Source: a virus. Taken from it: a DNA stretch of 64,000 nucleotides. The notes below the pieces were generated by a model. It worked only from the letters and a program-made list of their open reading frames with translations. It searched no databases and had not been told where the DNA came from. Within the stretch, counting starts at the first letter, position 1. Every line of letters starts with the position of its first letter. Positions 34,031 through 35,070 of the stretch are shown piece by piece. The position numbers and the translations under genes were made by a program. The stretch covers positions 78,626 through 142,625 of the IMG/VR virus record IMGVR_UViG_3300045988_070909; one strand, written 5' to 3'.

Positions 34031-34510
34031 TCAGCCAAATATACAAATCATTGAAGATATAAAGAATACAGCTCCTCCTACCACACTTATCCAACCTTCA
34101 GCATCTTCGTCATTCTTAGATAGCTTTCCTCTACCAGTTAGTAGCATAAACAAGGATATTCCTAATAATATGATACCTATTACAACACCTGCTATCTCTT
34201 TGTAAAGTAATTTCCATACTACGATAGTTATTGCTGTTTGTCCCAAATTAGAGTCTGCTATTCTGATGGCGGAATCTTCAACTGCTTTAAGAGTTTCATT
34301 AACAGCCACGCCTATTTCCTTACCAAGGTTAGCATACTCAGAAACTTCCTTGATTTCACCCTTTATAGCTTTCTCTGTTGTTATCTTCTCAATTTGAGTT
34401 CTAGTATCACTAGGCAACTTATCATAGTCTTCTTGTGATATAGTTATCTGAGAAAAAGCTGCTACGCTCATCCAGAGCATAGCAAGCATAATTACAAGGA
34501 ACTTTTTCAT
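34031..34510 (-). CDS. secreted/membrane hypothetical protein
   Basis: Signal peptide and a C-terminal TM segment. Confidence 0.5.
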   Translation of the reverse strand: MKKFLVIMLAMLWMSVAAFSQITISQEDYDKLPSDTRTQIEKITTEKAIKGEIKEVSEYANLGKEIGVAVNETLKAVEDSAIRIADSNLGQTAITIVVWKLLYKEIAGVVIGIILLGISLFMLLTGRGKLSKNDEDAEGWISVVGGAVFFISSMICIFG

Positions 34511-35070
34511 TAGTCAAGCCATTCAAATTCTTCACCCTTGAAATGTCTTGCAAAACAAGCATCGAACACTAGCTTTCCAAACTGGGTTGATACGTATTTG
34601 GCAATCTCTTCAGATTTGCACGCAAGCATCCCGACACCGGAATAGGCATAGCCGACGCCACAGTAAGAATCGAAATAGCCGAGACCCGCACGGCCGCCAA
34701 GACGCGCGTCGCCGCCCACCAACGCGAATTTCTCGCCCTGATAACGGAAGTGACCAATGACTTCTGCATCCTTCGGAACTGATTTCATTCTAAAGAAGCG
34801 AACCCAGGGATACCATATAGTACCAGTTAACAGATTGAACTTGTGACCTTTATTTAGCGCATCCAAGACTGTCTGCAACTTAGCTAGAGAATTTACAGAT
34901 CTATTGTAGTAAATAGTATCTCTAGTAACACACCCTAGATAGTTTACAGCATCCTCATAGGTTCTTATCCGTCCCATAATGTTTTCTGGAACGATTTCAA
35001 CATTGCCAGTTTCGGCATTATAGATGGGTTTATAACCATCTGGACATTCAATTTCAATTGTCTTTTTCAT
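34510..35070 (-). CDS. remote DGR target protein carrying VR2 (C-type-lectin/FGE-like fold predicted)
   Basis: The coding sequence contains VR2 (...VGGDARLGGRAGLGYFDSYCGVGYAYSGVGM...) in the same register as the template repeat's AAY codons. Confidence 0.75.
   Translation of the reverse strand: MKKTIEIECPDGYKPIYNAETGNVEIVPENIMGRIRTYEDAVNYLGCVTRDTIYYNRSVNSLAKLQTVLDALNKGHKFNLLTGTIWYPWVRFFRMKSVPKDAEVIGHFRYQGEKFALVGGDARLGGRAGLGYFDSYCGVGYAYSGVGMLACKSEEIAKYVSTQFGKLVFDACFARHFKGEEFEWLD
34630..34716 (-). repeat. DGR variable repeat VR2 (87 nt)
   Basis: Matches the template repeat at 63058-63144 over 87/87 aligned positions except 26 positions where the template has A; no non-adenine mismatch; GC-rich island in an AT-rich genome. 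Confidence 0.85.

Follow-up and report, generated by a model that had tools for sequence, protein, structure and literature searches.

Evidence for a remote, opposite-strand second target of a diversity-generating retroelement in a large amber-recoded phage

The 64,000-nucleotide (nt) stretch of viral DNA analysed here (the window; IMG/VR record IMGVR_UViG_3300045988_070909, positions 78,626 to 142,625) holds, in our reading, one diversity-generating retroelement (DGR) in which a single template repeat (TR) serves two targets. One variable repeat, VR1, stands beside the TR and the reverse transcriptase (RT) gene. The other, VR2, is a remote repeat that would be served in trans. We put the probability of this reading at about 0.93. 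The evidence that carries it is the adenine-specific match between VR2 and the TR, the hypervariability of VR2 among otherwise identical genes, and the conservation of the arrangement in related genomes. The elements concerned are listed below by their positions in the window.

34510..35070, minus strand: VR2 target gene, encoding a 186-aa protein assigned to phrog_11581 by hidden Markov model match
34630..34721, minus strand: VR2, the remote variable repeat; its 92 nt cover codons 117-147 of the target gene
61134..62984, plus strand: VR1 target gene, which encodes a tail protein (phrog_5302) and contains 7 TAG codons in frame; the stop expected in the TR frame is at 62968-62970
62829..62943, plus strand: VR1, the adjacent variable repeat, at the 3′ end of the tail-protein gene, identified by its match to the TR
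63049..63144, plus strand: TR, non-coding, with 10 in-frame AAY codons; 63049-63144 pairs with VR1 and 63053-63144 with VR2
63197..63285, plus strand: candidate structured RNA between TR and RT, a sub-threshold match to Rfam RT-17 that includes the hairpin CCUUGCCUCUAGGCAAAA
63288..64000, plus strand: 5′ part of the DGR RT gene, with in-frame TAG codons; the window end cuts the gene, and the TTG start is uncertain

The remote repeat and its template

A first-pass annotation had proposed that positions 34630-34716 on the minus strand align base for base with the TR at 63058-63144 and differ from it only where the template has adenine. Pairwise alignment of the reverse complement bore this out: the match is ungapped over 87 nt and mismatches occur at TR adenines only, although their number is 22 rather than the 26 first counted. 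We found that the alignment runs 5 nt further, to 63053 in the TR and 34721 in VR2, giving 92 nt in which none of the 62 non-adenine positions differs and 24 of the 30 adenines are changed. The probability of matching by chance at all 62 non-adenine positions is about 0.3^62, indicating that the resemblance cannot be accidental. When both strands of the window were scanned with an adenine-tolerant version of the template, the TR, VR1 and VR2 were the sole sites, and no third target was found in the window. VR2 lies in frame within the open reading frame (ORF) at 34510-35070, and all ten AAY codons of the TR fall into the codon register of the VR2 gene (codons 121-145), as had been proposed. 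The common boundary also stood up to inspection, since GTCGGG closes both VR1 and VR2 and corresponds to GTCGAG in the TR, with no homology beyond it. The target protein continues for 39 residues after the repeat, close to the earlier estimate of about 40.

We compared 28 IMG/VR contigs that carry both the VR2 and the TR loci. In all 28, VR2 and the pair of TR and RT occupied opposite strands; the distance between VR2 and TR was 25-31 kb in 27 of them (the 28th contig ends inside the VR2 gene), and VR2 had no non-adenine mismatch to the TR of its own genome in 21. A search of the complete relatives, of ~186 kb, with a degenerate TR pattern that accepts any base at each adenine (A-to-N) identified exactly three sites, namely VR1 and the TR, 200 nt apart, and VR2, with neither a third target nor a second TR. 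A second lineage was also found, whose RT is 75% identical to that of the window and whose VR2 homolog is ~40% identical to the window protein; here the TR and the VR2 homolog are 39-44 kb apart on opposite strands. The second-lineage TR differs from the window TR at many non-adenine positions and matches both its adjacent VR1 and the remote VR2 homolog with 16-22 adenine mismatches and 0-2 others. That this TR fits both of its own targets indicates that TR, VR1 and VR2 evolve in concert, as predicted for a working transfer. The architecture of the ~28 genomes and the co-evolution in the second lineage, together with the population hypervariability described below, support the proposal of the first-pass annotation that a second, non-adjacent target on the opposite strand is served in trans by the same TR and RT.

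Diversification of VR2 and the competing explanations

To follow variation in the repeat, 34 VR2 genes from independent assemblies and related genomes were compared for nucleotide entropy, and 121 protein homologs were aligned for residue entropy. Across the 34 genes, the mean entropy was 1.275 bits at the TR-adenine sites of VR2, 0.020 bits at the non-adenine sites within VR2 and 0.289 bits in the remainder of the gene. The low value at non-adenine sites is expected from repeated re-copying of the TR, which would homogenise them. At the protein level, entropy exceeded 3 bits only at residues 121, 123, 124, 127, 134, 136, 137, 141, 143 and 145, which are the positions of the TR AAY codons. All four bases occur independently at both adenines of these codons, and in the 121 sequences the TAT codon yields exactly Y, S, C or F and the AGC codons yield G, S or C. 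Moreover, we identified 24 genome pairs that have no difference in the 469 nt of the gene outside the VR, 11-22 differences at the 30 adenine sites and at most one at the 62 non-adenine sites. Identity in the rest of the gene, combined with this many adenine-site differences, indicates recent, repeated mutagenesis rather than an ancient relic. VR2 is an active DGR target, and its diversification is ongoing.

Nine TR adenines fall outside the AAY codons (63054, 63057, 63061, 63079, 63087, 63094, 63116, 63121 and 63143). At these positions, which belong to AGC, GCA, GAC, GAG, CTA and GTA codons, G is found in 29-34 of the 34 VR2 sequences and mostly in VR1 as well, and the TR retains A in nearly all related genomes examined. 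We attribute the change from A to G at the AGC, GCA, GAC and GAG codons to selection for Gly and other scaffold residues. If the non-AAY positions must be Gly, most retrohoming events would yield non-functional proteins.

The activity of VR2 bears on the idea that it is a relic, that is, a formerly diversified or duplicated repeat that is no longer a substrate of the DGR. A single alignment of a TR with a VR cannot tell past from present activity, and VR1 in this assembly is itself damaged, both of which favour such an idea. However, the genome pairs that are identical outside the VR and differ at up to 22 adenine sites are hard to reconcile with it, and the non-adenine positions of VR2 are more conserved than the rest of the gene, as would be the case if the TR were continually re-copied. 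In the diverged lineage these non-adenine positions follow the TR of that lineage. We therefore regard a relic as very improbable.

The same low probability is given to the view that the variation of VR2 comes not from retrohoming of its own but from gene conversion or recombination, be it with VR1 or among co-infecting phages. VR1 and VR2 do have all non-adenine positions in common, and the VR-like G found in the TRs of some relatives, L046 (contig 059870) and L070 (contig 056908), is evidence of exchange, or of chimeric assembly, among the three repeats. Nevertheless, VR1 and VR2 of one genome bear different residues at the adenine sites, and the homology between the two target genes is confined to the 35-aa VR, while the independent occurrence of all four bases at both adenines of the AAY codons is the signature of a DGR and not of the shuffling of a few alleles. 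Least probable of all is an artefact in which a metagenome assembler collapsed or chimerised the repeats: hypervariable repeats do confuse assemblers, and the extra 19 nt of VR1 described below may be of this origin, as may the VR-like bases in some TRs, but the VR2 gene has unique flanks and an intact frame, was recovered at the same length in hundreds of independent assemblies from several sources, and has a counterpart of its kind of target in an induced and sequenced phage isolate, BI-TP1.

The cassette and the proposed route of transfer

The TR is identical or nearly so across the related genomes. In the assembled TRs of L046 and L070, the VR-like G occupies several adenine positions, which suggests TR-VR assembly chimeras or occasional VR-to-TR conversion. 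In the window, VR1 ends 105 nt upstream of the TR, and the product of its gene matches phrog_5302 (tail protein) with an E value of 1e-77. In relatives this protein has 605-606 aa and the C-terminus ...VGFRTLNRVS. The window VR1 is 19 nt longer than the TR, through an 18-nt insertion and one further nucleotide at ~62851-62883, and has one non-adenine mismatch; the additional nucleotides move the tail gene out of the TR AAY frame, altering the C-terminus. The extra segment is present in none of 27 related genomes. In these, VR1 and the TR can be aligned over 96 nt with 16-26 adenine mismatches and 0-3 others; the alignment is gap-free in 25 genomes and has a 1-nt gap in the other two. No convincing match of the 19 nt to the TR was found on either strand, nor any k-mer match elsewhere in the window. 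The segment is either a real aberrant event or lesion, or an assembly chimera in a hypervariable repeat. It was noted earlier that VR2 matches the TR better than VR1 does; this is true of the window, because of the extra 19 nt and the one non-adenine mismatch peculiar to this assembly, and does not extend to the relatives, in which VR1 is collinear with the TR.

The RT matches Pfam RVT_1 (E 2.8e-18) and carries the motifs IGNYLSQ, of the GxxxSQ type, and YADD. In relatives the full-length RT is intact, with 424 aa and 4-5 TAG codons. A 125-129-aa ORF overlaps the end of the RT gene there; it had no Pfam match in a scan that covered a fragment only. Between the TR and the RT gene, the segment 63197-63285 matched the Rfam family RT-17 at 28.7 bits (E 8e-4), below the gathering score of 40.4, and RT-18 was also matched below threshold. 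The segment holds the exact CCUUGCC-loop-GGCAAAA hairpin of RT-17, and its RNA is likely the counterpart of the structured spacer RNA used by DGR RTs.

By analogy with the mechanism modelled for phage BPP-1 (PMC5758913, PMC5703328), we propose that the TR (63049-63144) would be transcribed, probably along with the downstream structured RNA, and that the RT (from 63288) would copy the TR RNA to complementary DNA (cDNA) with misincorporation opposite template adenines. The cDNA would replace the homologous VR, which is nearby in the case of VR1 and 28 kb off on the opposite strand in the case of VR2, where it would act in trans. The ten AAY codons would be fully randomised in this way. The 3′ limit of the replacement may lie near TGTCG(A/G)G, and the 5′ limit would be where homology ends, at 63049 for VR1 and at 63053 for VR2.

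The BPP-1 element (mtd-avd-TR-brt) resembles the one described here in its adenine-specific transfer from TR to VR by an RT with GxxxSQ and YxDD motifs and in its use of AAY codons, so that no stop codons arise; its VR, like VR1, is at the 3′ end of a tail protein gene. It differs in having a single, adjacent target, the accessory gene avd, a 35-bp initiation of mutagenic homing (IMH) element and a GC-rich hairpin after the VR. The element of the window has two targets, its 3′ homology extends over only 5-7 nt, and neither an avd gene nor a conserved hairpin was recognised. One candidate recognition hairpin at VR2, GCAAATCTGAAGAGATTGC, was considered and rejected: it is not kept in relatives, in many of which a synonymous GAG-to-GAA change breaks it, and nothing was common to the targets or lineages.

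Several of these observations weigh against a single DGR with two targets. The homology between TR and VR past the last mutagenised adenine is only the 5-7 nt just mentioned, and no IMH-like element or conserved downstream hairpin by which the remote site could be recognised was found after VR2, VR1 or the VRs of the second lineage. No avd gene was recognised near the RT in a superficial scan of the VR1-RT interval and, in relatives, of the 6 kb past the RT. The RT gene of the window is truncated by the window end, and VR1 is frameshifted here, so that at least one target in this genome is damaged or misassembled. The evidence for activity comes from comparison between assemblies. Finally, what can be said about the function of the VR2 protein is entirely inferred.

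The VR2 protein family, its phages and related systems

The VR2 protein matches phrog_11581 (function unknown) with an E value of 3.9e-15 over residues 25-176. We identified 830 clusters of homologs at 85-95% identity, and the family forms ~221 clusters at 50% identity, nearly all with members of 150-220 aa. No Pfam family was found for the VR2 protein or for 61 diverse members of its family, and neither single-sequence nor profile searches gave a sequence match in the PDB. Searches of INPHARED with the VR2 region, at the DNA level in distant mode and at the protein level, returned only tRNA matches or nothing. The AlphaFold2 (AF2) model of the protein has a predicted local distance difference test score (pLDDT) of 86, and it matched no C-type-lectin or formylglycine-generating enzyme (FGE) fold (Mtd, TvpA, TaqVP or FGE) in a search run without a positive control. 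When the VR2 family and the VR1 protein were aligned with hhalign, no scaffold homology was detected, and only the 35-aa VR aligned (residues 116-150 against 567-601). The FGE/C-type-lectin label given in the first-pass annotation thus found no support in Pfam, PDB sequence or fold searches of this kind, and a minimal, divergent lectin-like fold is conceivable.

The suggestion that the VR2 gene is not an obvious tail gene fared better. The protein lacks a signal peptide, and its gene overlaps the next one at TAATG, where the stop codon of the former runs into the start of the latter. That next gene encodes a 159-aa product with a signal peptide; it is followed on the minus strand by genes for a predicted membrane protein (172 aa) and for an SPFH/band-7 protein (657 aa), the three lying at 31011-34510. 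All three are conserved together with the VR2 gene in the lineage-1 relatives. Within 8 kb of the VR2 gene are also a tRNA-ligase CPD domain (tRNA_lig_CPD), a PDDEXK nuclease (PDDEXK_5) and an AAA ATPase, with tRNA genes nearby. The downstream 159-aa gene was tried as a further member of the phrog_11581 family and rejected. On the other side, upstream of a tRNA-His gene and the VR2 gene, a 152-aa protein is encoded at 35181-35639 (minus strand); its first ~80 residues are homologous to the N-terminus of the VR2 family (hhalign probability 93.7%), and it contains no TR-matching repeat. To judge from this alignment, it may be a decayed or VR-less paralog of the VR2 family.

From its genomic context, the VR2 protein is most likely a hypervariable binder outside the tail module that takes part in phage-host conflict or host recognition. 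A more specific proposal is that phrog_11581 proteins are distinct, small, cytoplasmic DGR-diversified binders, expressed from the unrecoded early/middle block, that they are not virion receptor-binding proteins and lack a recognisable C-type-lectin scaffold, and that they are re-randomised so as to keep pace with a rapidly evolving host factor, for example a defence or takeover target. We hold this to be a possibility on the unlikely side. If it were correct, the RT would be translatable only after the code switch, that is, late, and each burst would prepare early-acting variants for the next infection.

We further found small homologs of the VR2 protein (121-139 aa) in phage contigs of 30-55 kb. 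They share an order of elements that consists of an IKTFEDACK helix, a KL.II.ALN.GW helix, KYYPWF, the VR, VGSRLC and a C-terminal helix, and three of them (from contigs L224, L246 and L260) match phrog_11581 at 1e-25 to 1e-31. The small members form tandems of two or three copies, immediately followed by a TR and an RT, and the RTs of L224 and L257 are 54-55% identical to the window RT. In L212, L224, L230, L232, L246, L257 and L260, the adjacent TRs match the VRs with 10-19 adenine mismatches and 0-1 others. The neighbouring genes in these small phages encode RecT, an MBL-fold hydrolase, an integrase, a small terminase and an ASCH protein, and are not tail genes. In L224, L230, L246, L257 and L260, the only nearby targets of the DGR are two or three tandem phrog_11581 paralogs of 121-217 aa, and in these five contigs the DGR seems to act on non-structural targets only.

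When one small member was used as the query in a tblastn search of GenBank phages, homologs were identified in LoVEphage-type Bacteroides phages and in phage Versailles; in BI-TP1 and Versailles they sit among recombination and methyltransferase genes. We located the TR of BI-TP1 (PQ571265.1) at 6537-6648 on the minus strand. This TR matches the adjacent Mtd_N tail protein with 20 adenine mismatches and 1 other, and the distal gp84 on the other strand with 14 adenine mismatches and no others. gp84 was matched by the family member in the tblastn search and has the sequence motifs of the family. Judged by these sequences, phrog_11581 is a widespread family of small phage proteins that are recurrently targeted by DGRs. 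Its members form tandems adjacent to the TR and RT in small temperate gut phages. In LoVEphage-like Bacteroides phages and in the phage studied here, they lie in non-structural regions and serve as a distal second target.

To place the window, we examined its coding signals. ARAGORN predicted 26 tRNA genes, 25 of them on the minus strand, including the following two.

44477..44549, plus strand: suppressor tRNA with anticodon CTA, at the strand-switch region
41376-41446, minus strand: tRNA with anticodon TTA, which would read TAA

Plus-strand ORFs of at least 100 aa add up to 18.1 kb when TAG is read as sense, compared with 3.4 kb under the standard code. Each of the plus-strand genes from ~49 kb onwards (49232-64000) would be interrupted by 4-28 in-frame TAG codons unless TAG is sense; these genes encode the large terminase (TerL), the portal and tail proteins. 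The minus-strand block at 1-44 kb, by comparison, is open under the standard code. The VR2 gene has no in-frame TAG and lies in this standard-code block, 30 nt downstream of tRNA-His. On these codon patterns, the RT and the VR1 gene presumably depend on the CTA tRNA for their translation, and the VR2 gene does not. TAA still acts as a stop despite the predicted tRNA with the TTA anticodon. The earlier description of the region as an early-gene block is right in that it is a standard-code, tRNA-rich minus-strand block, while early timing is a plausible inference from that organisation.

The TerL of the window shares 25-29% identity with the Crassvirales terminases and is closer, at 43-44%, to unannotated phage records from the human gut; the related genomes have 177-193 kb. 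The size, the tRNA block, the amber recoding, the TAG codons in the RT and the GxxxSQ motif of the RT fit the Zeta crAss-like phages (PMC12386605), and the host of the DGR is probably a ~186-kb crAss-like gut phage of the Zeta group.

Two further features of the window were observed. The GC skew and the AT skew switch sign at ~44 kb (43000-45000), where the direction of transcription flips, and VR1 and VR2 lie as mirror images on either side of this point, each oriented along its own arm. If ~44 kb is a bidirectional origin, both targets share the same orientation relative to fork movement. In addition, homologs of ribose-phosphate pyrophosphokinase and nicotinamide phosphoribosyltransferase are encoded next to each other at 3394-4203 and 4587-6089, both on the minus strand, and we take this pair to be of the NAD+ salvage kind used by phages against NAD-depleting defence.

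The first-pass annotation had called the arrangement unusual, which does not agree with published work (PMC5758913, PMC8008677, PMC12629997) or with gp84 of BI-TP1. Wu et al. 2018 (PMC5758913) described many DGRs of phages in which an adjacent target is accompanied by a non-adjacent one within 50 kb. The DGR of the window falls into that class, with one adjacent target and one non-adjacent target less than 50 kb from the RT, although recoded crAss-like phages were not covered and this target family was not characterised in that survey. In Quimbyvirus, the second target is distal, on the opposite strand and non-structural, and the analogous protein was called a C-type lectin by HHpred (Benler et al. 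2021, PMC8008677). In a 2025 study (Nature, PMC12629997), four species of induced gut prophage were reported to carry a second VR that is distal and close to counter-defence genes. A distal second target on the opposite strand is already known, then, in temperate Bacteroides phages, and its kind is not unusual.

Phages of the Quimbyvirus/LoVEphage type are like the window in that one TR serves an adjacent tail VR and a far, opposite-strand VR in a small protein encoded away from the structural genes, and in BI-TP1, as here, a band-7/SPFH protein is encoded a few kb from the distal target. The likeness to Quimbyvirus is one of arrangement. In contrast to these temperate siphoviruses of ~71 kb, the phage described here is a ~186-kb crAss-like phage, in the window of which no integrase was seen; its RT and VR1 genes are amber-recoded while its VR2 gene is not, and the distance to the remote target is 25-44 kb. 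The neighbours also differ, with tRNA genes, the tRNA-ligase CPD, the PDDEXK nuclease and SPFH here and a methyltransferase cluster in the LoVEphage type.

The Zeta crAss-like phages (PMC12386605) share with the window a genome of 182-189 kb, many tRNAs, amber suppression by tRNA(CTA), amber codons in the RT, a GxxxSQ RT, a tail-fibre target beside the TR and RT and, usually, the lack of avd, which that paper reports in only two Zeta crAss genomes. It gives a single TR-VR pair, in the tail fibre protein, except in Lera and ct1yV3, and its available text makes no mention of a remote VR2. DGRs were not discussed by Yutin et al. 2021. What is new is, first, the occurrence of such an arrangement in a group of large, amber-recoded crAss-like phages, whose DGRs have been listed in published work with the tail-fibre target only; second, the split between a recoded RT and VR1 gene and an unrecoded VR2 gene; and third, the tie between distal targets and a wider family of small, adjacent, non-structural DGR targets, phrog_11581.

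Standard DGR finders, which use windows of ~10 kb and the standard code, would miss both a TAG-bearing RT and a remote VR, and remote targets are for that reason probably under-counted. Thousands of natural variants of the family exist and the BI-TP1 record names a host strain, so that functional tests may be feasible. For the biology of these phages, the finding means that the DGRs of large recoded crAss-like gut phages diversify two proteins, reaching beyond the tail fibre, and phrog_11581 gives a handle on the roles that phage DGRs have beyond tropism switching.

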